Shown here: positions 484 to 52,837 of the stretch, in pieces
Layout of the letters: every line of letters begins with the position of its first letter
How positions within the stretch are numbered: the stretch's first letter is position 1
Virus record (IMG/VR): IMGVR_UViG_2909633642_000001
Span: 1,559-65,558 of that record
DNA length: 64,000 nt
Origin: a virus
Lineage: Duplodnaviria; Caudoviricetes
Reading direction: 5' to 3' (one strand)
Notes under the pieces: generated by a model
Seen by the model: the letters and a program-made list of their open reading frames with translations, nothing else
Told to the model about the DNA's origin: nothing
The model's database searches: none
Made by a program: the position numbers and the translations under genes

Positions 484-2184
484 TTGCCACCCATGCCCCA
501 AGGATTAACCACGCCCAATCGAATTGCTGGATACGAGAACGATCCAAGATATTGGCTCCCGTCCGGCGAAATTCCAATTGAGGATTTGTTATTACGAAAT
601 ATCCTCAGTTCGGATATTTCAAAATATGATGAAATCCTCAAAGACCCGAACGCTTTAGCGTGTCTTCAAAACCGAATCGGTGCAACACTATCGCGAGAAG
701 TTCGGGTGGTTCCCGCGTCCGAAAAACGAGCGGATAAAAAAGCAGCCGACTTGGTTTCTGAGCAGCTTTTAGGTGTTCGTTGGGCGGGGGCGAAACGAGA
801 ATCGGGCGCACCTTCCAGCGTCAACTTCGATCAGTTTTGCTCATCTTTAATGATGGCAATTCTCAGAGGATTCCAGGCGGTAGAGGTCTCATGGCAGAAG
901 GGGCGATCCGGTTGGCAGATTGCGGGGTTCACTCCCATTCCGTCACGCCGAATTAAGTTCGAGTTGGTGACAAAAGACACGCCACGAAATGCTGTCACCC
1001 ACATGGGATATGCCGTTAAGATTCTGACGCGCGATAAGCCATTCCGAGGGGAGTTTATCACCACGCCCTATCGAATCCTGGTTTACACATTTGATATCGG
1101 CGGCGGCTCCAATCCTTACGGGTTAGGGTTAGGCTCTGTCCTTTGGTGGTATTACCAATTCAAAAAGGATTGCCTTAAGGATTGGCTAGTTGCGGTTAGT
1201 CGAGCCACGGCTTTGATTAGGGCAATGTTTCCCGCTGGCGTGGGTGAGGGGCATCCCGTGTATGAAGAGGTTAAATCATTTCTTGAGTATTTCGCCCCTG
1301 AACATCACCTGATAGCTCCCGATGGCGTGGTGATTGACTTCTTGGAATCAACACGAAATGATCGGGATATTCAGCACACGATGGTTGAATTTCTCGATAA
1401 TCAGATCGCCCGCGTCATCGGTGGTCAGACCGCTTTAACCAATCAGCAATCAGGCGGTGGCTCCCGCGCTCGGGATGAAGTGGCCGAACGGGTGGCGATG
1501 AAGCTAGCCAAGTCCGATTCGGACGCTTTGAGCGGTGCGGCGTTGAATACCCTGGCTGAATGGATCACGCGACTGAATTTCCCATCCGCCCAAGCCCCAA
1601 CCATCTGGCGTGACTTCGATGATGTCGAGAATCTGACGGAACGGGCGGATCGTGACCAGAAGTTGGCGGCGGCAACCGGCCGGAAGCTTGACCCGGATTA
1701 CGTTACGGAAATTTACGGGACGGTATTTGCGGAACCTGAGCCGGTCGCTCCCATCCCGCCCGATCCGAATGCCGATCGGCTCAATCCCGAACCCCCTGCC
1801 TTCAGCTTGACCGGCAAGTTCGATTCGGTGTTTGACGCGGCCAATATCGAGCTTTTGCAGGCAGAGCAGAAACGGCGTGGTGAGGTCTGGAACTCGATTC
1901 AGGGTGCGCCGTATGTCCGGTATGTCCGGGTGCGAGAGGTGCAAAACCCGCGCGAAACCCACACGGCGATGGAGGGCAAAGTTTTCCCGAACGATGCCGC
2001 CTTCTGGTCAAAAGCTTGCCCGCCATCAGCCTTTTACTGCGGACACTCCCTAGAGCCGGTCGGGTCGGATTACGACGGGGAAATCACGCCCTTGCCCCAA
2101 GATGCTGAGACCCTCCGGCATTTGATCGAATGGGAAGGCTACGACGAAACGAATCGGAAATACTTCGAGTTGGGTGGTGATTGA
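484..2184 (+). CDS. Portal protein (DUF935/Mu gp29-like) fused to a C-terminal Mu gpF-like head morphogenesis domain
   Basis: DUF935-like features (YGLGL..L.W, IGGQTALT, RARDEV); C-terminal PRETHTAMEGKVF..DAAFW..CPP..FYCGH resembles MuF. Confidence 0.85.
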   Translation: MPPMPQGLTTPNRIAGYENDPRYWLPSGEIPIEDLLLRNILSSDISKYDEILKDPNALACLQNRIGATLSREVRVVPASEKRADKKAADLVSEQLLGVRWAGAKRESGAPSSVNFDQFCSSLMMAILRGFQAVEVSWQKGRSGWQIAGFTPIPSRRIKFELVTKDTPRNAVTHMGYAVKILTRDKPFRGEFITTPYRILVYTFDIGGGSNPYGLGLGSVLWWYYQFKKDCLKDWLVAVSRATALIRAMFPAGVGEGHPVYEEVKSFLEYFAPEHHLIAPDGVVIDFLESTRNDRDIQHTMVEFLDNQIARVIGGQTALTNQQSGGGSRARDEVAERVAMKLAKSDSDALSGAALNTLAEWITRLNFPSAQAPTIWRDFDDVENLTERADRDQKLAAATGRKLDPDYVTEIYGTVFAEPEPVAPIPPDPNADRLNPEPPAFSLTGKFDSVFDAANIELLQAEQKRRGEVWNSIQGAPYVRYVRVREVQNPRETHTAMEGKVFPNDAAFWSKACPPSAFYCGHSLEPVGSDYDGEITPLPQDAETLRHLIEWEGYDETNRKYFELGGD

Positions 2185-2918
2185 TGAATCCAATTCAGCC
2201 ATCGATTGCTCAAGATGACCGGACGCAAGCGCTTTGGAAGTTGATCGCGGCATACGCCGATCTGCCTTACTCCAACGCCCTGGTGTACGACTTTGACCGG
2301 GTGACGGCCACGGCCATTCCAAGCCTGATCACCCAACTCAGCGCTTCCGAGTTCGTCGTTCCCGAGATGACGGAATCGGAATACCGGGAACTGCTGTGGC
2401 GGTCAATCGAGTTGCATCGCACCAAAGGAACCCCGTTTGCAGTGAAGCGGGCCCTTGGGGTCTTAGGGATTTCCAGCGTGGTGATTTCTGAGTGGTGGCA
2501 ATCCATCCCACGCCGTCAAGTCCACACCTTCAGGGTCGCGATCGATGGCGAGGGATTGCCATCGGGTGATCCGCGATTTGATGTATCCGACCCAGCATTT
2601 TGGGCCAAGGCCTATCAGTTGATCGAAGCCGCCAAACCAGCCCGGTCGGGTTTTGAATTGGCCATTGCAACCCGTCCACAGTTGGGCCCGGCTCGGGTCG
2701 CGGCATCCAAAAGAGGGACGGTGATTGCCAGGGTTAACGCCGGGATTCCACGCCCAAAGGCAACAATCAGGGCAGCGGCCGGCAAACGACTAACCGCTAG
2801 GCTCACGGTCTCGACTCCTAAGATCCCAACCGTGGTCTCGACTCAATCGGGATTGCGGTTGGGTTTCCAGGGCGGCGGCCGGCTTGCTCTCGATTTGCCC
2901 GTGACGGGGGTTCCTTAA
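2181..2918 (+). CDS. Baseplate/tail protein, P2 gpI-like
   Basis: YRELL..SIELHRTKGTPFAVKRALGVLG..ISEWW is a typical gpI signature. Confidence 0.85.
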   Translation: MMNPIQPSIAQDDRTQALWKLIAAYADLPYSNALVYDFDRVTATAIPSLITQLSASEFVVPEMTESEYRELLWRSIELHRTKGTPFAVKRALGVLGISSVVISEWWQSIPRRQVHTFRVAIDGEGLPSGDPRFDVSDPAFWAKAYQLIEAAKPARSGFELAIATRPQLGPARVAASKRGTVIARVNAGIPRPKATIRAAAGKRLTARLTVSTPKIPTVVSTQSGLRLGFQGGGRLALDLPVTGVP

Positions 2919-5900
2919 TGCCAGACCAATTCGATATCACCGTCTCCGATCTTGAGACCCTACCCGGCGCTGACCTTCAAGATGGCGACCGGCTTTTGGT
3001 GTCGCGTCCGGGCGCGTTCGACAAGACCGTGACTTGGGGCGCGGTGAAGGAAGAGTTGGGGGTTGGGGTTGACCTGACTGCATTGCAGGCGCAAGTGGCG
3101 GGCAAGGCCAATGCGATCCACCAACACAGCCCCATCGACATCTTGCAGCGAGGGGAGCCAAACGGTTTCGCCACATTGGACGCGACGGGCAAGATTCCGA
3201 TCCTTCAGATTCCCGATGGGATTGGGGGCGGATCCGTGGGTGGCATTGAAGATGTGCCGGGGCTGCAAACCGCATTGGACGGGAAAGCGCCGATCACCCA
3301 CACTCAGGGAATTTCCACGATCACCGGACTCCAGACCGCATTGGATGGAAAAGCGCCGTCCGTCCACTCTCACGTCATTGCTGATGTGACCGGATTGCAG
3401 CCCGCCCTTGACGCTCGGGTATTGAGCAGTACGGTAGGGCAACCGTCCGGCGTGGCTTCTCTCGGTTCCGATGGCAAAATCCCGCCCGGTCAAATCCCGT
3501 CGCTGGCCATTGGCGAAACGTTCGTGGTGGCTTCCGAAGCGGCAATGCTGGCATTAACCGCCCAGCAGGGGGATGTTGCCCGCCGAACGGATACCGGGCA
3601 AACTTTTATCCTTCAGACGGAACCGGCTTCCACCCTTGCCAACTGGGTTCAAATTTCTGCTACCACGTCCGTCTCATCCGTTAATGGCGATATCGGTGAT
3701 GTGATTCTTACGATCACCGATATTCCAGGCTTGCAGACCGCGCTCGACTCGAAAGCCGCAACCGCTCACGTCCATTCGGGTGCGGATATCACATCCGGGC
3801 TAGTCTCGGTCGCACGGCTTGGCGCGGGTACTCCATCGGCAGCGAACTATCTGAGAGGGGATGGCTCATGGGTGGCTCCGAACGTGGCCGCGATTACCGG
3901 ACTCCAGACCGCGCTAGATGAAAAGCTCGCAACCGCATCCAACGCGGCCTCACAAGGTTTGGTCTTGACGGCAACGGGCGCAACCGCTTGGGAATGGAAA
4001 CAGCCATCGGGCGGCGGTGGCACTCCAGTCGATGCGAACGGGCATCCCGTGATCGGGGGCGTGGCTCCGGTTGCCGCTGTCGATTGGCGCGGTGGGGTCT
4101 CAGAGGTCGTGTCTGGGTTCCCTGCCTTCTCAGGTACAACCAGCGCCTACCGGGCTAACTCACGTCGGCTGTACGTAACCGCCGCAACCGCTCGGCTCCA
4201 TTACGCTCCCGACGCGGCCGGGCTGTTGGCAGAGGGGCAAATTCGGAATTATTGCGCCTATAACACTTCTGTTACGGGATGGACGGTGGTGAGCGCAACG
4301 GTGGCGGCCACATCGGGCGTGAACAATCCCGGTGGTACAGCCGGGGCGGTGCAAGTTGGCTCGACACTCTCAGGCGGATACACCCAACAAAGCGTGGTCT
4401 CGGTTCCCACCGAAGGGGCGGGCAACTACGCGGTCTCGGGATTTTTCCGGGCTGGCTCTGCCTCGGTCGTGACCCTGTGGCTGTCAGGCGACAACGGCAC
4501 GACCTTCTCCCGTTGCGCCTTTGACCTGACCACCGGGATTGCCACGCCCGACAACAGCGCCATCGTGCCCAGCAACATCCGAGTCGAGCGCTACCCGAAC
4601 GGTTGGTGGTATGTCGGATTTGTCGCAAACCTGGCATCGGTGGCAAATACCCGGATCCGAATTTATCCAGGCGGATTGGCGGGCGCGGTGGGCACGGTGG
4701 TGTTTTGGGGTACGCAGATCGCCCCGGCTGGATACGTGCCAAACCTTGGAACCTTGACTACGACGGCAGTTGCAACCAAGGTAATCGACACTCGCAGTTC
4801 GACACTTTCAACCCCGCTCACGCCTGCCGATTCAGCTTCAATCTACGCAGAGCTTTATCCCGGTGCGGCGGTTGATGGCTGTTTGTTTGCCTTGGGAGCC
4901 ACCACAGGCTCAAAGCCCCGGATCGAAATTCGTCGTACCGCGTCCGGCGATGGCGGGCTGATTCGGGCGTTCAACACAGCAGGCGTTCAGGTTTACTCCC
5001 AATCGATCACGCTGGGCACGGGGTTGACTCGGATCGCCCTGTCGGCGGGTTCCGATTCGACTTTGATCGCCGTAAACGGTACGACCTTTGCGGTTGCCGC
5101 GTCGCTCGATTGGTTGGCGATGACTCGGGTTGCGGTGGGCACGGACATCGACCTACTGAACTCGCCAGCCGGGGCTTTGTTCTTGCGGCTCCTGCTTTAC
5201 CCGTCTGTGTTTAGCATCGAGAACCTATCGGGTCTGTCGCTGGGCGGGTCTATCGGTGGTGGCTCCGGTGGCTCCGGTGGCGGTGGTAGCGTCACGCTTC
5301 CGATTGCCATCTCGGATGTGTCGGGTCTGACCGCTGTGTTGGATGGGAAGCTTGATGATTCGCAGTTAGCCCAACCGTCTGGGGTTGCGTCCCTCGATCC
5401 ATCCGGGCTAGTGCCAGTGGCTCAACTGCCCATCGTCACCACTTCGATTGCAGGGGCCATGACCGCTGCTGACAAAGCCAAGCTTGACGGGGTGGCCGCA
5501 GGCGCGACCGCCAATGCAACGGACGCTCAACTCAGAGATCGCGCAACTCATACCGGAACCCAGGCAATCGCCACGATCACGGGACTCCAAGCCGCGTTGG
5601 ACGCAAAAGCCGCGTCAGTCCACACCCACATTGCATCTGACATCACATCCGGCACGTTTACCACGGCACGGCTCGGGTCTGGCACGGCTAACGCCGGGGC
5701 ATATCTCAGGGGGGATTCATCCTGGCAAGCTTTGAACGTTGCCGCTGTCTCAGGATTGCAAGCCGCTCTGGACGCAAAAGCCGCGCTAACCCATACCCAC
5801 GTCATCTCAGATGTGACTGGGTTGCAGGCGGCTCTGGATGCAAGGGTGCTGACCTCATCCTTGGGTGTCTCGGGTGGCGTGGCGACTCTGGACGGGACGG

Positions 5901-7399
5901 GCAAAATCCCGAACGCTCAATTGCCCGCGCTGGCCATCACCGAAGTGTTCACGGTGGCATCGGAAGCCGCGATGCTGGCATTGGCCGCCCAGACTGGCGA
6001 CTTAGCCCGCCGTACCGATGTGAGCCGTACCTTCATCCTCACGGCGGAACCGGCAACGACCCTATCGAACTGGGTTGAATGGCTGATCCCTCCCGATATC
6101 GTGACTTCGGTTGCGGGCAAGACCGGGGCGGTGACGCTGGCAATTGCCGACACCGTGGGGCTTCAGGCGGCATTGGATGGGAAATCGGCTCTATCTCACA
6201 CCCACGCGGCCGCTGATGTCACGTCTGGCGTTTTCGCATCCGCACGGCTCGGAACCGGATCGCCATCGGCGGCGAACTATCTGAGAGGGGATGGGGCATG
6301 GGCGGCCATTGCCCAATCCGATGTCACGGGACTGGTGACCGCTCTCTCAGGCAAGCTCGACACGACCGCGCGGGGTGCTGCAAATGGCGTGGCCAGTCTG
6401 GACGCATCAACGCTAATCCCATCCGCCCAAATCCCGACCCTGGCCCTCTCGAAGCTTTCGACATCAGGCGCAACAACTGGGCAAGTTGTGACCTTTGATG
6501 GGTCGGCAATCGTCTGGAGTACGGCGGCCGGCGGTGGCAACCTGGCTTGGACAGTCCGAATCGCTAACGCCACACTCAGCGCCAATGAGAATTGCGTGGC
6601 TGATGGAAGCGTGACCGAACTAACCTTGCCAGCCAGTGCCTCTGGCTCTCACAACGTGATCAACGACACCACGGCGGCGATCACGATTGTGCGCGGTGGA
6701 ACGGCAACGATATCGGGGATTGCTCGGTCAACAGGCGCGGCAATTGCAGCAACAGATCGGGTTCGGATTTTGCCGGGTCAGCGCGGAGTCTTTATCGCAA
6801 GTGGAGGTAACTGGATTGCTCAAGGGTGCGAGCCACCCTCCTTGGTTTTTGCCTACGGCGGAACACCGTTGGCCAATAACCCTCAAAATCCCAACAGCGC
6901 TCACGGTCTCTTCCATTGGCTTGGTGGCGGCTCTGGATCCTATGTCAACCCCGTCACTAATGGAGTTGTTATTGCTGCTACTAGCGGTGAGCTGGCGAAC
7001 ACGGTAGCAAACCTTACAGATCGTGTTGCAAGCGGACAAAACGTCCACACTTCCTCCCTTGCGAACTCTTGGCGCGGCTGGCAGTTTCAAAAACAGTTTC
7101 GCTGTACTGGTTTCTGGATCCAGCTTGGCGGGATTGGTGGGTCAGACCCTCGCTCTTTTGCCTTGCGAGTAAATACCGGCACTGGACTAAGTAGTGCCAC
7201 AGAGGTTACCAACTGGACATTGGTACAAAGCTGGACAGGACAATCTCAATTGACGGGGGTAAATAATTATTTTTTCTTCCCCGTCACGACTCCAGTAAGT
7301 GGCAATCAATTGGCACTCATTCAAACGGCGGCAAATAGCAACGGCAGTCTTATTTTTGTCTTCCAAGAAATTGAGTTATTTGGGGAGTACGAGCCGTGA
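2918..7399 (+). CDS. Long tail fibre protein with internal repeats
   Basis: 1493 aa; many GLQ.ALD.KA..H.H repeats, duplicated VASEAAMLAL..GD.ARRTD blocks and beta-rich domains; follows gpI. Confidence 0.8.
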   Translation: MPDQFDITVSDLETLPGADLQDGDRLLVSRPGAFDKTVTWGAVKEELGVGVDLTALQAQVAGKANAIHQHSPIDILQRGEPNGFATLDATGKIPILQIPDGIGGGSVGGIEDVPGLQTALDGKAPITHTQGISTITGLQTALDGKAPSVHSHVIADVTGLQPALDARVLSSTVGQPSGVASLGSDGKIPPGQIPSLAIGETFVVASEAAMLALTAQQGDVARRTDTGQTFILQTEPASTLANWVQISATTSVSSVNGDIGDVILTITDIPGLQTALDSKAATAHVHSGADITSGLVSVARLGAGTPSAANYLRGDGSWVAPNVAAITGLQTALDEKLATASNAASQGLVLTATGATAWEWKQPSGGGGTPVDANGHPVIGGVAPVAAVDWRGGVSEVVSGFPAFSGTTSAYRANSRRLYVTAATARLHYAPDAAGLLAEGQIRNYCAYNTSVTGWTVVSATVAATSGVNNPGGTAGAVQVGSTLSGGYTQQSVVSVPTEGAGNYAVSGFFRAGSASVVTLWLSGDNGTTFSRCAFDLTTGIATPDNSAIVPSNIRVERYPNGWWYVGFVANLASVANTRIRIYPGGLAGAVGTVVFWGTQIAPAGYVPNLGTLTTTAVATKVIDTRSSTLSTPLTPADSASIYAELYPGAAVDGCLFALGATTGSKPRIEIRRTASGDGGLIRAFNTAGVQVYSQSITLGTGLTRIALSAGSDSTLIAVNGTTFAVAASLDWLAMTRVAVGTDIDLLNSPAGALFLRLLLYPSVFSIENLSGLSLGGSIGGGSGGSGGGGSVTLPIAISDVSGLTAVLDGKLDDSQLAQPSGVASLDPSGLVPVAQLPIVTTSIAGAMTAADKAKLDGVAAGATANATDAQLRDRATHTGTQAIATITGLQAALDAKAASVHTHIASDITSGTFTTARLGSGTANAGAYLRGDSSWQALNVAAVSGLQAALDAKAALTHTHVISDVTGLQAALDARVLTSSLGVSGGVATLDGTGKIPNAQLPALAITEVFTVASEAAMLALAAQTGDLARRTDVSRTFILTAEPATTLSNWVEWLIPPDIVTSVAGKTGAVTLAIADTVGLQAALDGKSALSHTHAAADVTSGVFASARLGTGSPSAANYLRGDGAWAAIAQSDVTGLVTALSGKLDTTARGAANGVASLDASTLIPSAQIPTLALSKLSTSGATTGQVVTFDGSAIVWSTAAGGGNLAWTVRIANATLSANENCVADGSVTELTLPASASGSHNVINDTTAAITIVRGGTATISGIARSTGAAIAATDRVRILPGQRGVFIASGGNWIAQGCEPPSLVFAYGGTPLANNPQNPNSAHGLFHWLGGGSGSYVNPVTNGVVIAATSGELANTVANLTDRVASGQNVHTSSLANSWRGWQFQKQFRCTGFWIQLGGIGGSDPRSFALRVNTGTGLSSATEVTNWTLVQSWTGQSQLTGVNNYFFFPVTTPVSGNQLALIQTAANSNGSLIFVFQEIELFGEYEP

Positions 7400-7770
7400 T
7401 CCACAAATTCGCGCACAACGGCTTGACGTTTGAGATTGGGGTTCCTGACGGGATGACTCCATCGGAAGCTCAACACGCTCATCTAATTAATGTCGATTCT
7501 GCTTACAGATGGCTCTCATTTCGTCGCGCGTTGCTGTCAACAACCGAGTACCAAAATGCCGTAGCGATTGGGTTAACCTCACCCAATGTTACTCTCGCCA
7601 TAACGTTATTGGCATCAGCAATTGATGCCTGCTGTTCTTATGGAGCGGAACCCGACGAAGTGATGGCGTTTCTGTCAGCAATTGACCTGCTGAAATTGCA
7701 GCTACCTTCACCCGATGGCGACCCAATTCGCTCTCGCCTCGACGCTTTGATTCTGGAGTTTCAGTTATGA
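7396..7770 (+). CDS. Small protein downstream of fibre (possible fibre assembly chaperone)
   Basis: Overlapping start/stop coupling on both sides; function inferred from position only. Confidence 0.5.
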   Translation: MIHKFAHNGLTFEIGVPDGMTPSEAQHAHLINVDSAYRWLSFRRALLSTTEYQNAVAIGLTSPNVTLAITLLASAIDACCSYGAEPDEVMAFLSAIDLLKLQLPSPDGDPIRSRLDALILEFQL

Positions 7771-8285
7771 TCCCAGCCCTCATCACCAACGCAGGCATCA
7801 CAGCCGCCACCGACGCTCGGATCGCGGGTCTGTCGGTACAGATCGTGGAAATCGCGATCGGTACAGGCACTTACGCCACACCACCCAACGGAACCGAGAC
7901 CGCGCTCAAGAGCGAGATCGCCCGATTCCCGGTCTCGGACTGGACAGACTCAGGCCCGAATGAGGTGTCGATTGCGGGCTACCTCACAGACCCAGGATTG
8001 GAGACCCCGATCACCGAAGTGGGGTGCTTCCTCGATACGGGTGAGCTTTTCGCAATCGCAGCCCGATCAACCCCGCCGCTGCTCTACAAGTCCACTGCCG
8101 TCTCCGATCTACTGGTGGAAATCACCCTAGCCCTGTCGGGACTCCCCATCGAAGCGATCACGATCACCGATGACGGCAACGATTTGACCATGCTGTGCGA
8201 CGTGCCCTGGTTGACCCAGAACACGCTCGATATGACCAAGATCACCATCCTCACGAACCAATCCCTCAAGCTCGCCACCCTTTAA
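7767..8285 (+). CDS. Tail fibre attachment protein (P2 gpH N-terminal/DUF3751-like, stand-alone)
   Basis: ITNAG.....IVEIAIGTG......ETAL..EIARFP...EVGCF...GELFA pattern. Confidence 0.7.
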   Translation: MIPALITNAGITAATDARIAGLSVQIVEIAIGTGTYATPPNGTETALKSEIARFPVSDWTDSGPNEVSIAGYLTDPGLETPITEVGCFLDTGELFAIAARSTPPLLYKSTAVSDLLVEITLALSGLPIEAITITDDGNDLTMLCDVPWLTQNTLDMTKITILTNQSLKLATL

Positions 8286-8288
8286 GCC

Positions 8289-12664: not shown

Positions 12665-12676
12665 GACGGGACTGCT

Positions 12677-41127: not shown

Positions 41128-41156
41128 GTATACATTCGAGCCTGGAGCCACCCATC

Positions 41157-43093: not shown

Positions 43094-43122
43094 TTGACAT
43101 TCCGATGGATACAAACTATATT
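43094..43122 (+). promoter_or_regulatory. Early promoter cassette
   Basis: TTGACA-TTCCGATGGATACAAAC(17)-TATATT. Confidence 0.85.
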
Positions 43123-43148
43123 GGATTCATCGAGTTCGAGATTCACCC

Positions 43149-44739
43149 ATGACCACCGCAGTCTTCAACCCCGTTGCTCAACAGTTCTACCCCGCTGATC
43201 CGATTGAGTTGACCGACCTTCAGGCTGAGTTGATTGAGGCGATTGAGTCCCTGGAAAAGATTGACCTTCATCCTGGATGGGAGGGGGGCAATGTCGCTTC
43301 GGTTGCGGCCGAACTGAATCGGATTCAGTCAGTGCTGGATCAAGGTTCGTATGAGTTGCTTGATCTCGGATACAGCTACCCGGCTTTGTACAAGGAGATT
43401 CGCTCGCATCTCGAACCGATTGAGATCACGGACGTTGACCCTGATGGGCGGGTGATCGTGGTGGGCTATCAAGACCCGTATTTCGAGTCTGATTCCGAAT
43501 CTGATTCCGAATCTGAATTTGACGAGTTCTAAACCTTATCGCCCCGGTTCAACCGGGGTTTGGAGATTGATCATGGGATTCTTTTGGGGCAAACACTTCG
43601 ACCATTCATCTGATGTTCGCGACATTGATGGCAAAGACACCGTTCTTTACACGCTGGAAGATGGCGCACACGCCATGGGGACTAAGGAGCGGCTGTCGTT
43701 CAACTGGACGCGCCCCGATGGCAAGCCGTCTAAGTACGCCAAAGACGACAAGCAACGCGCCGAATGCGTCGATGAAATGACCAAGCGCTGGGAAGAAGAC
43801 CGGCAACACCTGTAAACCCCTATCGCCCCGGTTCAACCGGGGTTCAAGCCATGTTCGACAAGCACCGCACGAAAGATGGGCATGAAATCCTGATTGCCCA
43901 GATGTCTGACTCTCACCTAACGAACACGATTCGGATGCTGTGCGCTCGACTAAAGCAAGCGCGACTCTACACCGAACAGCCTCAGTCGATCCTCTATGAG
44001 GCGCTGGGCGTTTCTCCTGAAGGCTGGAATCGGGATGATGCACTCGATGTGATCCGCTGGGTTCACGAAAAGCTGCCTGCCTACGTCACAGAAGCCACGT
44101 TGCGAGGTTTGGTTGTGACCGACCACTTGCAAGACGCTTATGGGCGGATCACTCAAATCCAGCCACCTCAATTCCCGCGCCCGGCTGGTCAGCTTAAAGG
44201 GTTGCTTAATCCTTACAGCACCGATGGGCTTGAGGATGCCGACTTTGATGAACCCTAGGAGAACACCATGGCCACCGCCATTTTTTGGAATCTCATCACC
44301 TGGATCGATGCGACCGATACGATCCGCAAAACCACCGCCGACACCACCGGCCGCCCTTTGAGTCGAGATGAAGCGGAATCGTTTATCGAACACGGGGGGC
44401 GTGTTGATCGCGTTGAGTTTGGATTCCTGTAACAAAAAAGGGCTGGCAAAAAACCAGCCCCCATCTATCGAGTTCGGAGACGACCACCCAAGGCCATACA
44501 CCGATTGTGGATATTTTAACGCCATGAAGCATTACGAAGCCCGAATCGAGTACACCATCACCGACACCGAAGGCGTGATCGAATGGACTCAAAAATCAAC
44601 TGCCTACTTTCATGACCGCCAAAACCCGCCCGATGATCGGGATATTCGCCGCGTGATAGCCCAACAAGAGCCGGACGGAATTGAGGGGCATTTTGCTTAC
44701 GTGGTCACAGAAGTCCGCAAGCCGTGGTGGAAGCGCTAA
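43149..44739 (+). CDS. Short early genes (43149-43532, 43573-43815, 43851-44258, 44524-44739)
   Basis: Consecutive ORFs separated by a repeated 24-nt hairpin and ending at a terminator. Confidence 0.65.
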
Positions 44740-44747
44740 CCACACAA

Positions 44748-44769
44748 GCCGGGTAAAGCCCGGTTTTTT
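44748..44769 (+). terminator. Intrinsic terminator
   Basis: CCGGG/CCCGG stem followed by T6. Confidence 0.75.
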
Positions 44770-44849
44770 CATGTCCAAATTCCATATTTTGACTATTGAC
44801 GTTTTTATAGTTGAAGTATTAAAATAATTACATCGAACATCACCCCGCG

Positions 44850-45509
44850 ATGGGGGTTGAACTGATGGCTTTGAATGGATTAATTGCTCCTGTTGACGGT
44901 ATTTTTCTCCCTGGATCAGGCCCGTTCGCGACTCGATTTAATTGCGCTTCCGGCTACTTGGCCTTGGATGAACGCAGTTTTATTGCCTCTGAAGGCAAGG
45001 TCGTGATCCTGCATTACGATGACCACTTTGGGAATCTCGGCAAAACGGAACGCGAGTTTTGGACTCGGATTGTGTTTATCCCGACCGCTGCATTGGTGGC
45101 AGATTCCAAGGGCAAAATCCCTGCCAACACGGTCTGCGAAGCGTTTTTGAAAGGCAAGAGCCGGACGGTGTTTCAGCAGGCGGCCGTCATCGCCACCCAA
45201 AAGTTCAAGAAAGGATTGGCTCAACTGATTTGCGAGTTCAAGTCCGTGGCTGAAAAGAACGAAAAGGGTAACTACGCATCGTTTGCCTTTGAGTTTTCGG
45301 AGCCTGAAAAGTCCGATGCGTCCTTCATGAGTGAGGTTCTGGCGTTTGCTCAAAGCGTCGATCCTGACGCGGTGCAATCGTTCAAGGCTCCGGGCTTGAT
45401 TCCGTTGGACAGTATCCCCTCGGATGAACTGGCCCTGTTGAAATCCCATCACGCCAGTGCCGTCACGTCCGAACCGATGGCGCAACTGCCCGCCCTGAAC
45501 GCCGCCTAA
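44850..45509 (+). CDS. Putative ssDNA-binding/recombination protein
   Basis: Aromatic beta-rich ORF near the exonuclease; function inferred. Confidence 0.4.
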   Translation: MGVELMALNGLIAPVDGIFLPGSGPFATRFNCASGYLALDERSFIASEGKVVILHYDDHFGNLGKTEREFWTRIVFIPTAALVADSKGKIPANTVCEAFLKGKSRTVFQQAAVIATQKFKKGLAQLICEFKSVAEKNEKGNYASFAFEFSEPEKSDASFMSEVLAFAQSVDPDAVQSFKAPGLIPLDSIPSDELALLKSHHASAVTSEPMAQLPALNAA

Positions 45510-45520
45510 TCCACCTTGCC

Positions 45521-45547
45521 CGGGCCGGTCATCACCGGCCCGTTTTT
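45521..45547 (+). terminator. Intrinsic terminator
   Basis: CGGGCCGGT/ACCGGCCCG stem followed by a T-run. Confidence 0.75.
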
Positions 45548-45550
45548 GTC

Positions 45551-46390
45551 ATGAAAACGGTGACAAGCATCTCGGGTGGACGATCTAGTGCATACATGGC
45601 GCTGCATTATCCAACCGATTATTACGTGTTTGCAGTGGTCTTAACTGATCATCAACCGTCAACGCCAAAAGACCCAGGGCTGTTGCGCGAATGTCGGTCT
45701 AGAATCCCTCACTTCACCGCCTCCCATGAAGCGGATTTGACCTTGCTCAATGTGCTGCGGTTAGAGCAAGAAATCGGACAAGAAATTAAATGGGTTGCGG
45801 CTGAATATTCACTGGATCAGTTCATTTTGGGTGCGACCCAAAACCCTGGATATCGAGCGGGCGCGGTGATGCTGCCCAATTCACGCACTCGATTTTGTAC
45901 TGTTGAGCAAAAGCTAAAGCCAATGTTTTGGCATTGCTTTAACAACGTCTATGACGGGGAACCGATGTTGATGAATATCGGATTTCGCTGGGATGAGCCA
46001 GATCGAGTAGATGGGTGGACGTGCGACAAAGATAAATTCGATTACCCGTCTTCATGCATCATCAAAACCCGCCGCCAACAGTATCGAAACATTGAATGGA
46101 GGATTGGCAACTTCCCTTTATACCAAGACCGAATCACCCGTGATCAAGTCAATCGATTCTGGGTGCAAAAAGGTTGGCAGTTTCCCGAGATTTCTAACTG
46201 TCGATTCTGTTTCCATCATCGCCCAATCGAGCAGCAGCGCCAGGCGGAATTGGAGCCTGCAAATCTTCAGTGGTGGCTTGATATGGAGCGAGTGACTGGC
46301 AACCGATTTGGCAAACACTCATTGCAAGACATCATCTCTCAGGCACTTCTAGACGTTTTCGACCACAAGCCCTGTCATTGCACGGATTAA
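45551..46390 (+). CDS. PAPS-reductase-like (adenine nucleotide alpha-hydrolase) protein
   Basis: SISGGRSSAYM PP-loop; RFCT..K; NC.FCF; terminal CHC. Confidence 0.8.
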   Translation: MKTVTSISGGRSSAYMALHYPTDYYVFAVVLTDHQPSTPKDPGLLRECRSRIPHFTASHEADLTLLNVLRLEQEIGQEIKWVAAEYSLDQFILGATQNPGYRAGAVMLPNSRTRFCTVEQKLKPMFWHCFNNVYDGEPMLMNIGFRWDEPDRVDGWTCDKDKFDYPSSCIIKTRRQQYRNIEWRIGNFPLYQDRITRDQVNRFWVQKGWQFPEISNCRFCFHHRPIEQQRQAELEPANLQWWLDMERVTGNRFGKHSLQDIISQALLDVFDHKPCHCTD

Positions 46391-46392
46391 TC

Positions 46393-47211
46393 ATGACTAC
46401 CCTCGCAATCCCCAAGATCACACCCCTTGAGTTTTCAGGTGGCAAGGGGCAACCTTACCTCACCCCCATGGGTGCATTGCCATCGGTCACGACCATCCTG
46501 CGCGAGACCGCTTCGGAAGAGACTCGGATGAAGTTGGCAAAGTGGGCCAAGTCCAAGCGGTCGGGCATCGATCCCGCCGAACGGGGCACAATGGTTCACA
46601 GCGCCATCGAGGCCCTGTTGAAAGGTGAACCCGCACAATTGCCCCAATCCCTTTGGGGGTTCTATGAATCAGTGTTGCCCATCCTGAAAGGCATCACCCA
46701 TGTGGCATCCGAGATTTGCTGCTACCACCCTGACGGATACGCGGGCCGCGCTGACTGCCTGGCCCTGGTGGATGGTGAGCTAACCCTGCTTGACTGGAAA
46801 ACCACAACCAAGCCGTTTTTGCACGGGTCGGTTGATGAGTATCTGGATGAAATCCAGAATTGGGACAATCGGATTGCAGAAGCTCGACAGCAAGAGCGCG
46901 ATCACGTCCTGTCAGCGGCGGCCGCGGCCAGGCTGATTCGCAAAATCCAGGGGCATCGCTCGCGGGTCACGTCTGACCTGGAGCGACGCACCGACTACCT
47001 GATGCAGTTGGCCGCATACGCCCGCGCTCTCGAACACACCTACGGGTTGGCTATTGACCGGGCGCAAATTGTGCTAATTCTGCCCGACCAGCCCGCGATG
47101 GTTGTGATGATGAAACACGGCTCGATTCGGTTGATGTTCGAGCAATTCCGTGAGCGGTTAGACAGCTACGCAATCCAGGCGCTCCGAAAAGGGGGTGACT
47201 CCCATGAATGA
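46393..47211 (+). CDS. PD-(D/E)XK exonuclease
   Basis: LPSVTTIL, RGT.VH..IE, YAG..D......LLDWKT, QLAAYA motifs. Confidence 0.88.
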   Translation: MTTLAIPKITPLEFSGGKGQPYLTPMGALPSVTTILRETASEETRMKLAKWAKSKRSGIDPAERGTMVHSAIEALLKGEPAQLPQSLWGFYESVLPILKGITHVASEICCYHPDGYAGRADCLALVDGELTLLDWKTTTKPFLHGSVDEYLDEIQNWDNRIAEARQQERDHVLSAAAAARLIRKIQGHRSRVTSDLERRTDYLMQLAAYARALEHTYGLAIDRAQIVLILPDQPAMVVMMKHGSIRLMFEQFRERLDSYAIQALRKGGDSHE

Positions 47212-48219
47212 AATCGACATTGATTTGGATCAAATCGAGTTCGCCGTGAGGTTTATCCGTCGCGTTTGTCAAGACCCCAAAATAGCTGCTGAATCGCGGG
47301 CGGCCGCGCTGAAATCGGCAGATGAAATCCAAAAGCTTGCGAACGGATTGCGAGCGTCAATGACCTTTGGGGGTCTGTGATGAAATACAAGGAATGGATT
47401 CGCCCAGCAGTTGTCAATCCCTTATCCCGGGCCAAAGTATACGGCGCTGACGCGAGGGGAATTGATGTGATTCCGAAGTCCGATCCTCGCCGGGTAGACC
47501 CGAAAAACCCAAAGATTGGATCCCGTGTTTTTCGAGCTTTTTCGGAAGCCGAAAGAATCTGGCTAACCAATCAACACGGCGCTCAATATTTTGACCAGTG
47601 GAAAGGTGTTTTGCTGTCCATCATTGACGGAGCTGGAACGTCTAAATATTGCGTTGTCAAATGCGACAACGGCACAATTCGCGAGATGAGATCAACTGGA
47701 ATGAAATACGAGGTGAGTTGTGATGTTGATTGAATTGATTGCCGGTTGGGTGATCGCAAATATGCGCGGCCCTCAAAATCAAGACTTGGTTCCTTGGGGT
47801 GAAATCGAAGGGGTTTACGATCAGTCACGCGAAGTATTTTTTGACAATTACCAAATCGGATTCTTCCAATCCGTCCGCTGGGCATATTGGCGGCTGATTG
47901 ATCATGCGATGCTTGGCTGGTCATGGATGGCAAACCTTGAAGACGATGGAGTGGAATCATGACCCTGATCAATCTTTTTTGGGGCTGGGTTTATGCCAAT
48001 GTCCATGGACTTCAAAACCAAGATTTTGTCCCATGGGGGGATCGTCAATTCGCCTACGACTATGCCGGTTGTCGATCAATCAATCGGGATGGGGCCAGCT
48101 TCCCCGAATTGGTTCGTTGGGTGGTTTGCTGCATGAAAGAACACGCGATCACGGGCTGGCATTATGCGGCCGTGATCGAGATTGCTGAGAATTGGGAGGA
48201 TGGAACGCATCTCATCTAA
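47195..48219 (+). CDS. Four short genes (47195-47380, 47377-47733, 47720-47962, 47959-48219)
   Basis: Translationally coupled ORFs; the last two are paralogous. Confidence 0.65.
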
Positions 48220-48497
48220 TCCGCCCAAACCGATGGTGAGCCATCCCGATTCCGAGACCCGCAACTGATCGAATCGCCAATCCTTGCCCAAGCCCGGCCG
48301 TTCACGAACACGGTCGGGCTTCCGTTTGCCTGGGTTCCTGAGTGGCAATCGGTGCAACAGTGAACAGCCCACCCATCTTCCACACGCACCGCGCCCAACC
48401 CCTCAGCGAACACATCCTCAGACCATGACGCGGGCGGCCGTGGCGGCCAGCATCCGTGCCCGGTGCAAAGGTCAGTCTCTCTCACGACACGGGGCAT
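48216..48497 (-). CDS. PAAR domain spike-tip protein
   Basis: VR..D.CTGHGC.PP...S.DVF.EG..AVR..D....H....GSPTVFVNG...ARIGD..SCGS. Confidence 0.92.
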   Translation of the reverse strand: MPRVVRETDLCTGHGCWPPRPPASWSEDVFAEGLGAVRVEDGWAVHCCTDCHSGTQANGSPTVFVNGRAWARIGDSISCGSRNRDGSPSVWAD

Positions 48498-48574
48498 TTG
48501 CGGTTCATCCTCATATAATTAAAAGGTCATGGAATTGATTTCTTGGATCCCGCCCTGTGCGGGATTTTTGTTGC

Positions 48575-49144
48575 CTATCCCCAATCGATTTGCTCATCAC
48601 GGGCTTCGGCGGCGGATGGCTCCGATGGGTTGAAGTCGATGCGTGGGGCCCTGATGGTCACGTTCTCCCCAGCGATCATCACCGTCCCCTCAGACCGGAT
48701 CGACACGTGAGCGCCATCGCCCTTGACCGTCAGGGACAGGTGGTGTGACTCGGAATCGTAGACCACGGCTGATCCATCGGGGAACACCACGTAATGTTTG
48801 TGCCCATCGGTCTTATCCCCTGTCGGCTTGATCGCGTCCGGCTCCTGTGGCGGCGGCTCTGCCTCAGTCCAGAGCGCACCCAACCAGACACCACGCTCAC
48901 CCGCTTCATCGATAGCGGCCGCTCCGAATGTGCCGATCGATGGCAGCGCGTATGATTGGCGACGGTCGGCCCCCTGTCCAGTCACGAGGCATGGCAGCCA
49001 GGGCGAAACGACACCATCTCTATCGGCTTGGGTGATCCGCACACGGCAAAGTTTGGGGTCGATCTCACTCACCACGCCATAGGCCAGTGTGGTGCGACCG
49101 GCTTCAGGACTGGCTGCTCTCTGCTGGGTTTTGGTCTTAGGCAC
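48575..49144 (-). CDS. Baseplate spike, P2 gpV-like
   Basis: G.V..ID....RVR....D..S.WL......Y.LP.IG....G..LG..W...F.DG..V.YD. Confidence 0.92.
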   Translation of the reverse strand: MPKTKTQQRAASPEAGRTTLAYGVVSEIDPKLCRVRITQADRDGVVSPWLPCLVTGQGADRRQSYALPSIGTFGAAAIDEAGERGVWLGALWTEAEPPPQEPDAIKPTGDKTDGHKHYVVFPDGSAVVYDSESHHLSLTVKGDGAHVSIRSEGTVMIAGENVTIRAPRIDFNPSEPSAAEARDEQIDWG

Positions 49145-49263
49145 TTGACAGATCGGGTAGGGGATGCCACCATCTTAGCTGTACCCCTTGGCGGGGGTTG
49201 CACAGCACCCGTAAGGCGTTATCGCATCCATCCCTCAGATTGCCGTTAGGCGTTAAATATTCC

Positions 49264-49299
49264 GAACCGCGTCCCGCTCTCTCCAGTGGGACGCGGTTC
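49264..49299. other. Perfect 12-bp GC-rich hairpin
   Basis: GAACCGCGTCCC-N12-GGGACGCGGTTC. Confidence 0.85.
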
Positions 49300-49321
49300 T
49301 GCTTTGGGCTATCATGTCAAC

Positions 49322-49424
49322 AGCACGGTAGAGCAGCCAGGTAGCTCGTGAGACCCATAGCCCCGTATAGTGAACAACTTTAGGGTAGGGCCGCAAGGCG
49401 ATGGTTCGATTCCATCCCGTGCCA
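49322..49424 (+). ncRNA. Initiator-tRNA-like RNA with elongated anticodon arm
   Basis: Acceptor (A)GCACGG/CCGTGC(C)+A; D arm GAGC-AGCCAGGTA-GCTC; T arm GATGG-TTCGATT-CCATC; CAT at canonical 34-36; about 29 nt longer than a normal tRNA. Confidence 0.75.
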
Positions 49425-49428
49425 TTCA

Positions 49429-50571
49429 TTACCCATCCGTATCGAACCGTCCAGCATCCAACGGCTTGGCCCCTGACCCCAACCGTCGCTCGCATCGAAA
49501 GTTAGTCTTCCATCCCGAACGCCCCTCAACTGAATGGCGGCATTCCTGGATCAGGTAGTTGCCCGACAACCTGCCAACACCCAACAACTCAAACATCACA
49601 CCCGCCTGAATCCGAGGATCGCCAATCACGTCAATTTGCCACTCGACTTCATTGGCATTGGCCCGCCGTAGTTTTTCCTTCGCGACCCGCTTGGCCTCAT
49701 CATCAGACCCGACCGGCTCCGAAATTTTGAGTACGTTGGCGGTCTTCTTCTCCCCTTCAGGCGGTTTGGACTTGTCGGGCTTGGCCGTATCCCCCTCAGA
49801 CGGCTCCGATTTCTCCCCGCTCACCTCAGACGCTTTCACCGTCGCCCTGAATGTCTTGCCCGATTGCGGGTCGGTGTAGGTCAACTCTGCTGAATCGTAT
49901 TTCTCAGTGCTGGTGCGTTTCCAAGTGGCGTTGGTCAACTCGGATCGGTTAAGGGTGAATGCGGCCGGCTGGGAATCCAGATCCTCCAAATCCCAGAAGA
50001 CAATGAATTTCGCGTCCTGAACCTTCATGATCAGCCCATGCTTCTCTGAAATCCGTTTCAGAAATTCCAGGGGCGTTTCATCCTTCTGCGATACCCGATC
50101 AATCACCACGGGCTTGACCTTGCCTTTCAGCTCCAATCCCGTGCGCTTGGCCACGTCAGCGGCAATTTTGTCGAGCGTGGTCTTTTCGTATTCCTTCGAT
50201 CCTTTGGTATTGGCCGGTTGGGTGATCGGCGTGGATTTGCAGGACAGCCTTAAGGACTCCCCTGATGTGGCCGATATCGTGCCAGTCGGCTCATCCAACT
50301 CGTACCGCGTGACCGGCAGGGAGCCTCCGCCCTCGTAGCCAATGGAGCACTCCAGGGAAGCACCCAAGGGCGGGAACCAATCATTCAGGAATCGCCCCGC
50401 CACCAACCATGCGTCCGGGTCGTAGAGGTCAACGTCTAGCGTGTCTGACTCACCTTCTACCGATGCGCTGACTTCCAGGCGGGTGCATAGCGCTGCAATG
50501 TCTTCGGTGATGTCGCGGCCTTGCATCACCAGCTTGAACCAGACTTTGGGGGCTAGGGAGTCTACAGCCAT
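49429..50571 (-). CDS. Baseplate hub / late control D-like protein
   Basis: G.DIT..I......GESD.L...L.D, K....EK.TL..IA..VA...GL, Q..ET.LEFL.RI, G.YLI...RH. Confidence 0.92.
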   Translation of the reverse strand: MAVDSLAPKVWFKLVMQGRDITEDIAALCTRLEVSASVEGESDTLDVDLYDPDAWLVAGRFLNDWFPPLGASLECSIGYEGGGSLPVTRYELDEPTGTISATSGESLRLSCKSTPITQPANTKGSKEYEKTTLDKIAADVAKRTGLELKGKVKPVVIDRVSQKDETPLEFLKRISEKHGLIMKVQDAKFIVFWDLEDLDSQPAAFTLNRSELTNATWKRTSTEKYDSAELTYTDPQSGKTFRATVKASEVSGEKSEPSEGDTAKPDKSKPPEGEKKTANVLKISEPVGSDDEAKRVAKEKLRRANANEVEWQIDVIGDPRIQAGVMFELLGVGRLSGNYLIQECRHSVEGRSGWKTNFRCERRLGSGAKPLDAGRFDTDG

Positions 50572-50783
50572 GGCGGTTTGATCGAAGTCGTTACGGGTTC
50601 GGGTTCGGGTAACTCAGGGATGATCAGGGTCAGTCCCCTTGGAAGGATCGCCGGGGGCAATGGCAGCAGCGACGGGTTGGCCCGCGCCAACACATGAAGC
50701 CGATCGGATGACCCATAGGCCGCATGGGCGATTAGGTCAAGCCGATCACCGTCTCGGGTGGTGTAGGTGCGGTATCGGGTCAT
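50562..50783 (-). CDS. Tail protein X (LysM-like)
   Basis: Y.T..GDRLD.IA..AYG......L..ANP.......P.G..L.IP; ATG at 50783. Confidence 0.9.
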   Translation of the reverse strand: MTRYRTYTTRDGDRLDLIAHAAYGSSDRLHVLARANPSLLPLPPAILPRGLTLIIPELPEPEPVTTSIKPPWL

Positions 50784-50800
50784 GGGGGTGGGGGTGGGGT

Positions 50801-50844
50801 GATGCTCCCATCGTGCCATCGGGGGATGGATCGCGCGGGTTAAC
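50801..50844 (-). promoter_or_regulatory. Putative late promoter motif upstream of gpX
   Basis: GTTAACC-N20-GGCACGATGGGAGCATC on the minus strand. Confidence 0.6.
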
Positions 50845-50953
50845 CGTGCGTCCGGTTTCGCTTGTGAGCTGACGTATTATTTAAAAGCGAAGCCGCCTAG
50901 GAATCGGAAGTTCCCAAGCGGCAATGATTCAGCCCGTAGGAGGGGCGTGAACC

Positions 50954-51541
50954 ATGTTTACTATACCTTTCGGTTGTCGAGAAATCCGGGCAATTGACGC
51001 GCCCGATGGGACTTGGTTCGTTGCTAAAGATGTGTGTGCGGCTCTAGGGCTGGACAACACGTCTCAGTCCTTGTCTCGACTAGAGAAATGGATGAAGGGC
51101 AAAGAGCGCGTTGCTGGCATTGCGGGGGGCCCTCAAAAAACCAATGTCATCAACACCGCCGGACTCAAGAAGCTGATCACCACCAGCCGCAGCCCCAAAG
51201 CCCAAGACCTTGCCTATGCGCTTGGGATCGACGTGGCTTATGCCCCACCCAAGGAAGCTGAGTGCATTCGCATCATCGCGGCCGCGCTAGCCGATCAAAC
51301 GCCCATTCACCAATTCCCCATCCTCTCCTACCGGATTGATCTGTATTTCCCGCGCGGTCGGGTGGCTGTGGAGTGCGACGAAAACGGACACCGGGGCAAG
51401 CACCGCGCGGATGCGGTTCGTCAGCGGGAAATCACCGAAGCGCTGCACTGCTCATTCATCCGATTCAACCCCGATGCTCATGACTTCAACGTTGGGCGGG
51501 TAATTCACGACATTCGAGAGGCGCTGTTCTTCCCGTACTAA
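50954..51541 (+). CDS. BRO-N plus DUF559-like endonuclease domain protein
   Basis: WFVAKDVC.ALG N-terminus; YRIDLYF....VAVECDE.GH....D..RQ..I...L.C.FIRFNPD. Confidence 0.85.
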   Translation: MFTIPFGCREIRAIDAPDGTWFVAKDVCAALGLDNTSQSLSRLEKWMKGKERVAGIAGGPQKTNVINTAGLKKLITTSRSPKAQDLAYALGIDVAYAPPKEAECIRIIAAALADQTPIHQFPILSYRIDLYFPRGRVAVECDENGHRGKHRADAVRQREITEALHCSFIRFNPDAHDFNVGRVIHDIREALFFPY

Positions 51542-51590: not shown

Positions 51591-51745
51591 GTGGCCAGAC
51601 CCTGCGAGATTTGCAGGTAATACCGAGGGGCGATGTCGGTAATACCGAGGTCATCACCCCCCTACTCTGCCACCCAAGACCGAATCATCAGGGTTAACCC
51701 GACCCCAAACCCTCATAAATCCGTTCGAGGCAGAGGGGTAAACAA

Positions 51746-52305
51746 GGGTGTATCCACCATCCCATAAGGATTCTAGGCTCTCATAGCCACCCATCGCCAC
51801 CCATTAACAACCATTGGATACGCTCTGAAACCCTTACCCCACATACCTTTCAGTGCCCCTATATATATCTGTAACCACTAAAAGAAGGAAATGCGTATAA
51901 AGGGATTTTTTTGGAATTTTGGGCAGGTGTCTCTGTATTCCTTATTGGGTGGGCATTTCAGCCTCTACCCTTCCTAAGAATCTGGAATAGGGCTTGAAAT
52001 TTTAGGCAGATAAGCAAAACCTTTCAGGATTATCAGTTTGTCTTATCTGCCTAAAATTTTGGCATCTGCCTATGACCCCATGGAAAGGTAGGGGCTGGAA
52101 TGTATGTAGGGCAAGAGTTTCAGCGACACCTGCCTAAAATTTTGGAAATTTTGCTGATGAGCCAAATCGACCCTCAAGTGGTTACAGACTCTTGAACGAA
52201 ACCCAAAAGTCTTGTGGGGTAAGGGCTTGAGACTGTACCTGTCGCCTGTTGCCCTGCATTGTCGATGGCTATAAAAAGCTGAAAGTACCGCCACTCCGTT
52301 GATAC
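51746..52305 (+). repeat. Repeat element copy C (direct repeat of B)
   Basis: 51746-52224 aligns with 29125-29610 with scattered substitutions; right TIR degenerate. Confidence 0.9.
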
Positions 52306-52402
52306 ACCCCTGTTGGGCGGCAAAAATTAGCGGCCATCGTCGTTAACCGTCACCCCATTGGGACTGGTGCGATGGTGAGGGGGTTGGCTCATCCGTCACC
52401 CC

Positions 52403-52837
52403 ATGCCGATCATCGCCACGCCATCCACGCCCTACCCTGCGATTACCGCCCAATACCAATCGGCTCGGTTGCAGCGGTTGGGCAATGCCACCAACCAAGG
52501 CGACACCCTTGGCCAAGTCCTGACGGATTTGGATGAGTTAGCCCAAAGCATCCGAATCATCCTGACCACGCCCAAAGGGAGTGACCCGTTGCGTCCCGAG
52601 TTCGCGACGGATATTTACCGACTGATTGACCGCCCGTTGGCAGAAGTGCGGTTGTTGCTGGTGAGGGAATGCGTGAACGCGCTCCGAAACTTTGAACCCA
52701 GGATTTCCCTTGATCGGGTGGAAATCCTGGGTTCGATTGACCGGGCCGATATCCCGGTTGATTCGGTCTATGCGGTTGTCCACTGGTCGCCAGTAAATTC
52801 ATCTATCAGTGCGGCCACGGCAGTGTCCCTGGCATAA
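52403..52837 (+). CDS. Baseplate wedge protein, GPW/gp25 family
   Basis: L.QSI.IIL.TP.GSDPLRPEF..........V.AL..FEPRI.L..V. Confidence 0.92.
   Translation: MPIIATPSTPYPAITAQYQSARLQRLGNATNQGDTLGQVLTDLDELAQSIRIILTTPKGSDPLRPEFATDIYRLIDRPLAEVRLLLVRECVNALRNFEPRISLDRVEILGSIDRADIPVDSVYAVVHWSPVNSSISAATAVSLA

Follow-up and report, generated by a model that had tools for sequence, protein, structure and literature searches.

Dispersed baseplate genes and a candidate distributed late regulon in a putative temperate myovirus of Limnothrix

We analysed a stretch of 64,000 nucleotides of viral DNA (Caudoviricetes; hereafter the window), which corresponds to bases 1559-65558 of the 65.6-kb IMG/VR provirus record IMGVR_UViG_2909633642_000001, with respect to the position of its tail baseplate genes. 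Genes were called from PHROG and Pfam scans, and the whole record was also searched by Pfam in six frames. The genes gpI, gpU, gpJ, PAAR, gpV, gpD, gpX and gpW are present in exactly one intact copy each, and the six-frame search of the whole record yielded one match each for W, J and I. None of the baseplate genes contains an internal stop codon, and the set is complete and non-redundant. All parts of a P2/BcepMu-type baseplate were found: the wedge (J, W, I) and the hub and spike (D, V, X, U, PAAR), together with the sheath, tube and tape measure. The contiguous, co-oriented order (U-X-)D-V-W-J-I-fibre is not kept. The head genes include families of the Mu type (PHROG_113/220, PF05069, PHROG_976, PHROG_1005). 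The window probably covers nearly the entire genome, about 63 kb, of a temperate myovirus of Limnothrix with a Mu-type head and a contractile tail of the P2/BcepMu type. Few features of tailed phages are more conserved than the gene order of their tails and baseplates.

Compared to the canonical series, the adjacencies U|X, V|W, W|J and J|I are lost (Table 1). The gene for gpI and the fibre genes sit between the head genes F and G. The gene U occupies its usual position behind the tape measure gene, from which just an antisense open reading frame (ORF) of 118 aa separates it, and the series breaks after U. The X-D-V-PAAR block is inverted, at a distance of about 25 kb from U, and converges on a PD-(D/E)XK exonuclease gene ending at 47211. 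The J gene is monocistronic and convergent with orf193(-). Its start is probably ATG 29777, because homology begins near residue 35 of the ORF. The W gene is convergent with orf115(-) and divergent in transcription from X. The regions in between are occupied by non-structural genes. Those between J and the hub genes encode ParM-like, FtsK-like, regulator-like, KilA-N and PAPS-reductase-like proteins and the PD-(D/E)XK exonuclease. The regulator-like ORF, at 39476-40249, is one of the candidate phage regulators. Genes for a 1041-aa protein, an adenine methyltransferase and a helicase lie past W.

Table 1. Structural genes, candidate control elements and intervening blocks. Positions are those of the window.
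Feature	Position	Strand	Evidence or remarks
GTTAACC box of portal	431-437	+	inside the 3' end of the terminase gene, 62 nt before ATG 493
Portal protein, Mu-F-like C-terminal part	484-2184 (ATG 493)	+	PHROG_113 3e-59, PHROG_220
gpI (Tail_P2_I)	2181-2918	+	Pfam 3e-21; directly after the portal gene, within the head module
Fibre block	2918-10244	+	PHROG tail/fibre families
Mu-G / Phage_tail_S-like virion morphogenesis protein	10247-10645	+	PHROG_26, Pfam PF05069; head module resumes
Protease, scaffold, major capsid, connectors, sheath, tube, tape measure	11256-22886	+	
Sheath	15429-17495	+	PHROG_23 1e-74
GTTAACC box of tube	18317	+	
Tube	18356-18916	+	Pfam Phage_tube 7e-33
Tape measure	19518-22886	+	PHROG_28 3e-54
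Antisense ORF, 118 aa	22883-23239	-	between tape measure and U
gpU (Phage_P2_GpU)	23302-23793	+	Pfam 5e-21
Non-structural block including the 323-aa Ant anti-repressor	23790-28334	-	early-type TTGACATTCCGATG candidate promoters
TTGACATTCCGATG cassettes	25516-26290, 32370-32425	-	
TTGACATTCCGATG cassettes	32495, 32920, 41099, 43094	+	
Non-coding repeat region upstream of J	28446-29700		one inverted and one direct copy of a ~0.5-kb element
Baseplate_J ORF	29675-30901	+	Pfam 9e-50
J island	29716-30901	+	GTTAACC box 29716, GATTGGGAGCATC, Baseplate_J ATG 29777-30901
Non-structural blocks between J and hub genes	30937-47211		
Hub operon	47253-50844	-	box 50844-50838, X, D, V, PAAR, two ORFs without known function (47972-47253)
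PAAR	48216-48497	-	above Pfam cut-off
gpV	48575-49144	-	PHROG_9992 9e-10; Pfam Phage_base_V below cut-off
gpD	49429-50571	-	PHROG_52 9e-67; Pfam GPD 28.8 bits, cut-off 30.1
gpX (Phage_tail_X)	50562-50819	-	above Pfam cut-off; start probably 50783
Ant-like gene	50954-51541	+	between X and W; variable
Third copy of the ~0.5-kb element, upstream of W	51734-52250		96% identical to 29120-29419
W island	52342-52837	+	GTTAACC box 52342, then GPW_gp25
gpW (GPW_gp25)	52403-52837	+	Pfam 3e-10
Tyrosine integrase	60265-61506	-	adjoins the prophage-host junction

Relatives were found in five IMG/VR records, onto each of which the window proteins were mapped by tblastn. Records G1 and G6 come from one genome, G2 and G7 from one metagenome, and G8 represents a third lineage. 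The protein identity to the window is 52-100% for G1 and G6, 32-88% for G2 and G7, and 37-89% for G8. At the DNA level it is about 92% for G1 and about 70% for G2. The portal-I-fibres-G junction recurs in G6 and G8, and its portal-I part also in G7. The order tape measure, antisense ORF, U, minus-strand block, Ant, J recurs in G6 and G2 combined, with the junction of U to the minus-strand block present in both and that of orf68 to J in G2. The J gene is followed by orf193(-) in G1. The right part of the map, that is, the exonuclease, V-D-X(-), W(+), orf115(-), the 1041-aa gene, methylase, helicase and integrase(-), recurs in G1 and G7. Every junction is thus seen again in independently assembled relatives. 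The antisense ORF between the tape measure and U is itself conserved, with 46-97% identity in G2, G6 and G8 and a ratio of non-synonymous to synonymous substitution rates (dN/dS) of 0.10.

The distance between X and W is 0.45-0.9 kb in G1 and G7 and 1.6 kb in the window, where an Ant-like gene intervenes. This gene is missing from G1, and G7 has no homologue of it between X and W, which marks it as a recent insertion. The larger Ant gene (27073-28044) has a paralogous 5' end and, at 28076-28105, a paralogue of the hairpin that lies upstream of the Ant-like gene (50892-50922).

Every baseplate gene is under purifying selection. In the comparison with G1 and G6, the dN/dS values are 0.02 for I, 0.18 for U, 0.10 for J, 0.06 for PAAR, 0.12 for V, 0.10 for D, 0.25 for X and 0.07 for W.

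The scattered order is derived and specific to a small group, as follows from two comparisons. Firstly, in L137, which has the next-nearest tail module in IMG/VR (sheath 43% identical), the genes sheath-tube-U-D-V-W-J-I follow one another without a break on the same strand and span no more than 8 kb. The candidate gpV of the window is 30% identical to the product of the gene that this outgroup has between D and W. Secondly, 30 J loci were found in 401 Cyanobacteriota genomes, and W is directly upstream of J in all 29 loci that could be assessed, D-V-W-J-I being the rule. The best J matches in these genomes are only 31-42% identical. The J search of genome contigs and the alignments of J and sheath against metagenome contigs revealed no further relatives, a portal-alignment search of IMG/VR returned the same three records and nothing further, and there were no relatives in eight genomes of the host's order. 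Between 79% and 43% sheath identity, no lineage with an intermediate gene arrangement turned up.

Much of this layout had been proposed in a first-pass annotation of the same DNA, made from the sequence without database searches. The placement of I and the fibres between portal-F and gpG (2181-10244) is confirmed by both the domain calls and the synteny of relatives. The solitary J at 29777 was correctly recognized, and its context is kept in G1 and G2. The same is true of the X-D-V-PAAR block on the minus strand (50783 to 48216), convergent with early genes, as it faces the exonuclease gene. The reading frames had been considered intact rather than decaying, in agreement with the single copies, the absence of internal stops and the dN/dS range of 0.02-0.25. 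The physical tie of early modules to essential virion genes that was deduced from the interleaving can be read off the gene map. Two loci have to be reconsidered. Although U indeed lies at 23302, it should not be counted as a scattered locus, since it is in its canonical place. Similarly, W does start at 52403, but it is not remote, since it is the divergent neighbour of X. Finally, the suggested repressor beside W (53047-53394) found no support, as Pfam, PHROG and PDB sequence searches gave no match for this ORF; the same holds for the 1041-aa protein.

Candidate regulatory elements were identified by an unbiased count of all 7-mers at positions -75 to -40 of 64 gene starts. The word GTTAACC ranked first. 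Five of its 12 oriented copies occur in this interval, all of them before virion genes (Poisson 4e-6; about 0.008 corrected for about 2000 words). The distance from the box to the ATG is 62 nt for portal, 54 nt for tube, and 61 nt for each of J, X and W. The leaders of portal, J, X and W have the common structure GTTAACC, about 26 nt, GATGG(G/A)AGCAT, 15-25 nt, ATG. In the relatives, the box precedes TerS (small terminase), portal, X and W in G7, tube and J in G2, tube in G8, and portal in G6. It is kept in the divergent phage although the surrounding sequence is not alignable. No sigma-70 consensus promoter was observed before J, X or W.

The second-ranked 7-mers belong to a different element, TTGACATTCCGATG-N-TATATT, which is a near-consensus sigma-70 promoter. 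It is a part of a cassette of about 59 nt that occurs in eight copies, all preceding non-structural units, and shares an operator-like sequence. This is probably an early or repressor-controlled promoter class. The presumed late units have a shared element at a fixed distance upstream, and the early units have TTGACATTCCGATG instead. From this we infer two promoter classes, with the dispersed baseplate genes forming a putative distributed late regulon.

Taken together, the data are likely, although not certain, to be best explained as follows. The U-X-D-V-W-J-I-fibre series would have been broken up in this lineage, so that non-structural genes now lie in between, and the resulting layout would be an ancient one that still works and has been retained. 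Each of the portal, tube, J, X and W units would carry its own late-promoter-like element 54-62 nt before the start, with GTTAACC, about 26 nt, GATGG(G/A)AGCAT acting as a late promoter or activator site. The baseplate proteins would then be co-expressed late as a distributed regulon rather than from a single operon, and virions would be made. The displaced genes may have stayed in the regulon by carrying or copying their control region. The stability of the arrangement, also suggested in the first-pass annotation, agrees with the recurrence of the junctions in three independent relatives, the purifying selection, the intact attachment site of G7 described below, and the derived state relative to L137 and the 29 of 29 control loci. 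A more general formulation is that an active temperate cyanophage lineage dissolved the near-universal D-V-W-J-I synteny into promoter-tagged islands of one to four genes, interspersed with early, partition and replication genes and kept through extensive divergence, with the genes carrying or copying their control region. We are less sure of that, and favour it by a narrow margin.

Several observations weigh against this explanation. The collections searched contain only three related lineages, of which two come from related metagenomes, and the depth of conservation is thus estimated from few genomes. The downstream half of the motif is weak in the W copy. None of the genes U, I and D is preceded by its own box; co-transcription with genes further upstream is presumed, yet U follows an antisense ORF. 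No late activator gene, Ogr- or C-like ones included, was identified in the phage. Moreover, GTTAAC is a common restriction and methylation site, and the phage encodes an N6-adenine methyltransferase. Therefore a part of the distribution of the boxes could reflect restriction avoidance or methylation, not transcription.

One possible alternative is a composite origin, with foreign cargo inserted into an ordinary late operon; there would be no dedicated regulation, and the islands would be read through from their neighbours. Indeed, insertions do occur, as demonstrated by the Ant-like gene between X and W, present here but not in G1, and the block at 31-47 kb is plasmid-like in having ParM- and FtsK-like genes. 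However, insertion alone cannot invert X-D-V-PAAR or shift I and the fibres into the head module. Read-through is also unlikely, as J and W are each convergent with the downstream gene and have non-coding repeat DNA upstream, and the conserved GTTAACC box stands at a fixed spacing before each island. The intervening blocks yielded no additional recombinase. We consider this origin unlikely. An independent mobile element as the sole cause was rejected for the same lack of a recombinase, and because neither the inversion nor the relocation of the fibre block is explained by it.

The state of the prophage can be assessed from its ends. The prophage-host junction (attR) is at approximately 61488, within the 3' end of a host GAF-PAS adenylate cyclase gene, and the DNA from there to the right end of the window is the 3' part of this gene. 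The flank is 95-98% identical to Limnothrix redekei LRLZ20PSL1 and Limnothrix sp. BL-A-16. In both of these, the homology to the record ends at 61488, and neither genome contains a relative of the phage J protein; thus the attachment site in them is empty. At the opposite end, the 1558 bases of the record to the left of the window contain a 161-aa ORF in the small-terminase position and then most of the large terminase gene. The G7 contig runs from the integrase gene through a spacer to TerS-TerL-portal-I without interruption, and within the spacer (L099 ~8600-8650), 43 nt repeat the 3' end of the host cyclase gene almost exactly. Judging by this arrangement, G7 is the unintegrated form of a relative, with an intact attP and the same attB as the phage in the window. 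It follows that the prophage in the window is essentially complete at about 63 kb. The attachment site in the cyclase 3' end is common to two phage lineages. Integration exchanges the last codons of the host adenylate cyclase gene for phage-encoded ones (61478-61488).

Even less probable than a composite origin is a decaying or domesticated prophage, whose tail module is inactivated and whose genes are transient or form a remnant similar to a tailocin or a gene transfer agent (GTA). The CheckV completeness of the record is 80%, the gene order is non-canonical, and there is a scar with a fragment of gpX at 29034-29079. On the other hand, the structural genes are all intact, single-copy and constrained, and their order is kept at protein identities of 32-88%. 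This conservation across divergent lineages excludes a recent inactivating rearrangement, which had been named on the first pass as a possible refutation. The synonymous divergence (dS) of the phage genes is mostly 0.1-0.6, compared to 0.05 in the adjacent host gene. This several-fold difference, together with the empty site in near-identical sister strains, indicates separate and recent integrations of diverged phages, not a vertically inherited dead element. Besides, the attP of G7 is intact between the integrase gene and TerS, and head, packaging, integrase and replication-type genes are all present. A domesticated tailocin or GTA is ruled out by the integrase and attP, the empty sister sites, the excess of phage over host dS, and the intact head and packaging genes. 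Two tandem or mixed prophages are ruled out as well, since the structural genes are single-copy and there is one integrase.

The regions upstream of J and W contain the three copies of the ~0.5-kb element, which are 96-97% identical and rich in AATTTTAGGCAG repeats. Eleven of the 12 matches to AATTTTAGGCAG in the window are inside this element, whereas 0.14 would be expected by chance. The twelfth copy is at 41810-41821, 25 nt before the ORF 41847-42620. No RNA genes were detected in the window by Rfam (gathering thresholds) or ARAGORN, and thus the repeats are not a known RNA family. An origin, an activator array and a recombination site are all conceivable roles for the element.

An assembly artefact is hardly credible. 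In that case, these repeats (28.4-29.7 and 51.7-52.3 kb) would have led to a mis-join or to a falsely inverted segment, the true module being contiguous. The copies do stand exactly upstream of J and W, and the provirus of genome 2831813989 breaks into two records precisely at the repeat region. However, the junctions orf68-J (G2), X-W (G1, G7), portal-I (G6, G7, G8) and U-minus block (G6, G2) come from independent assemblies, which exclude the misassembly considered in the first-pass annotation, no relative shows the Ant and X after orf68 and the J beside W that an inverted isomer predicts, and the repeats cannot account for I and the fibres inside the head module.

The repeats may instead be related to the origin of the retained scattered layout. 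The J-side copies flank a stretch of 46 nt (29034-29079) that duplicates, at 85% identity, the leader and first codons of gpX (50753-50798). It is a scar left when the X/W control region was duplicated or rearranged in the past. The leader of J is most similar to that of X. In the divergent relative, a different sequence of 167 nt is common to the regions upstream of J and upstream of W (77% identity). These traces suggest an origin of the J control region by copying of the X/W one, with such repeats serving as recombination substrates.

Among the best matches in cultured phages is the BcepMu / phiE255 group (35-40% identity for J, 35% for sheath, 30-37% for capsid); the capsid is 31-37% identical to RcapMu- and BcepMu-like phages. 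The BcepMu group and the Limnothrix phage share the families portal/F, G, protease, major capsid protein, sheath, tube, tape measure, U, X, D, V, W, J and I. The tail genes of the BcepMu group form one contiguous same-strand series. According to annotations of the group's records, the W-type wedge gene is beside J, whereas in the Limnothrix phage W and J are apart. The phages of the BcepMu group are transposable. The Limnothrix phage, unlike them, has a tyrosine integrase and attP, and a genome of about 63 kb. No transposase that could mediate Mu-like replicative transposition was found in it, and its insertion is site-specific, at the cyclase 3' end.

The late genes of phage P2 are divided among four operons (P, O, V, F), and the promoter of each is activator-dependent, an upstream dyad replacing the -35 box. 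Thus the premise of the first-pass annotation that a single late operon is the norm is imprecise; the norm is rather that the late region is contiguous, with D-V-W-J-I together. Indeed, the late operons of P2 are adjacent, V-W-J-I-H-G are together, and no early or replication genes are interleaved. P2 resembles the Limnothrix phage in the baseplate families and in the proposed logic of late regulation by split units, although the motif GTTAACC-N26-GATGGGAGCAT is unrelated in sequence to P2 late promoters. The logic of the putative regulon may be likened to the activator-dependent late promoters of P2 and Mu or to the late promoters of T4. In T4-like phages, the baseplate genes are in several clusters and share a short late promoter, but these are large virulent phages with their own late sigma factor. 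In contrast, the Limnothrix phage is a 63-kb temperate phage with a P2-type tail, from a group where D-V-W-J-I is otherwise near-universal (29 of 29 controls). In the Wolbachia prophage WO, a temperate P2-like myovirus, the head, baseplate and tail modules vary in position and orientation between genomes, and in WOMelB the baseplate module is 34.7 kb from the rest, but within modules the genes stay syntenic (PMC3173496). Unlike WO, in the Limnothrix phage the baseplate module itself is split into pieces of one to four genes, the same in all relatives. In a limited literature search we did not come across any temperate P2-type phage described as having J and W as single-gene islands amid early genes.

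Gene order in the tail and baseplate region underlies the view of phage evolution by modules, and is built into tools for prophage finding and annotation. A scattered set under purifying selection challenges the explanation of clustering by a need for ordered assembly or translational coupling, and also its explanation as a mere reflection of operon regulation and co-inheritance. If the proposed interpretation is true, the phage is a natural experiment showing that clustering of tail genes is not mechanistically required for baseplate assembly, and a tractable system for asking why it is conserved elsewhere. The GTTAACC element would be a candidate new late promoter for cyanophages. As some Limnothrix strains carry the prophage at a known att site and others lack it, promoter tagging, gene order and modular exchange are accessible to experiment.

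Several other features of the window deserve mention. The fibre block consists of a 1493-aa fibre gene, orf124, a 172-aa fibre or collar protein gene and a 651-aa tail protein gene, in the same order in G6 and G8. The 1493-aa fibre gene (2918-7399) contains seven copies of a 60-nt repeat and one 180-nt duplication. The most divergent virion genes among the relatives are the fibre gene (48% identity in G8) and the gene of the 651-aa tail protein (37% in G8), as expected of parts involved in host recognition. The ParM-like and FtsK-like ATPases (34358-38974) are an unusual accessory module for an integrating phage. Another unusual accessory module is the PAPS-reductase-like gene adjoining the PD-(D/E)XK exonuclease gene (45551-47211).

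Lastly, an antisense ORF of 151 aa inside the head module, 10642-11097 (-), has a weak HTH_3 match. It is 99% identical to its counterpart in G6, with dN/dS 0.015, and 58-60% identical to those in G2 and G8. In the latter two, a GTTAACC box stands in front of it. The ORF, which is extremely conserved, is a candidate regulator.

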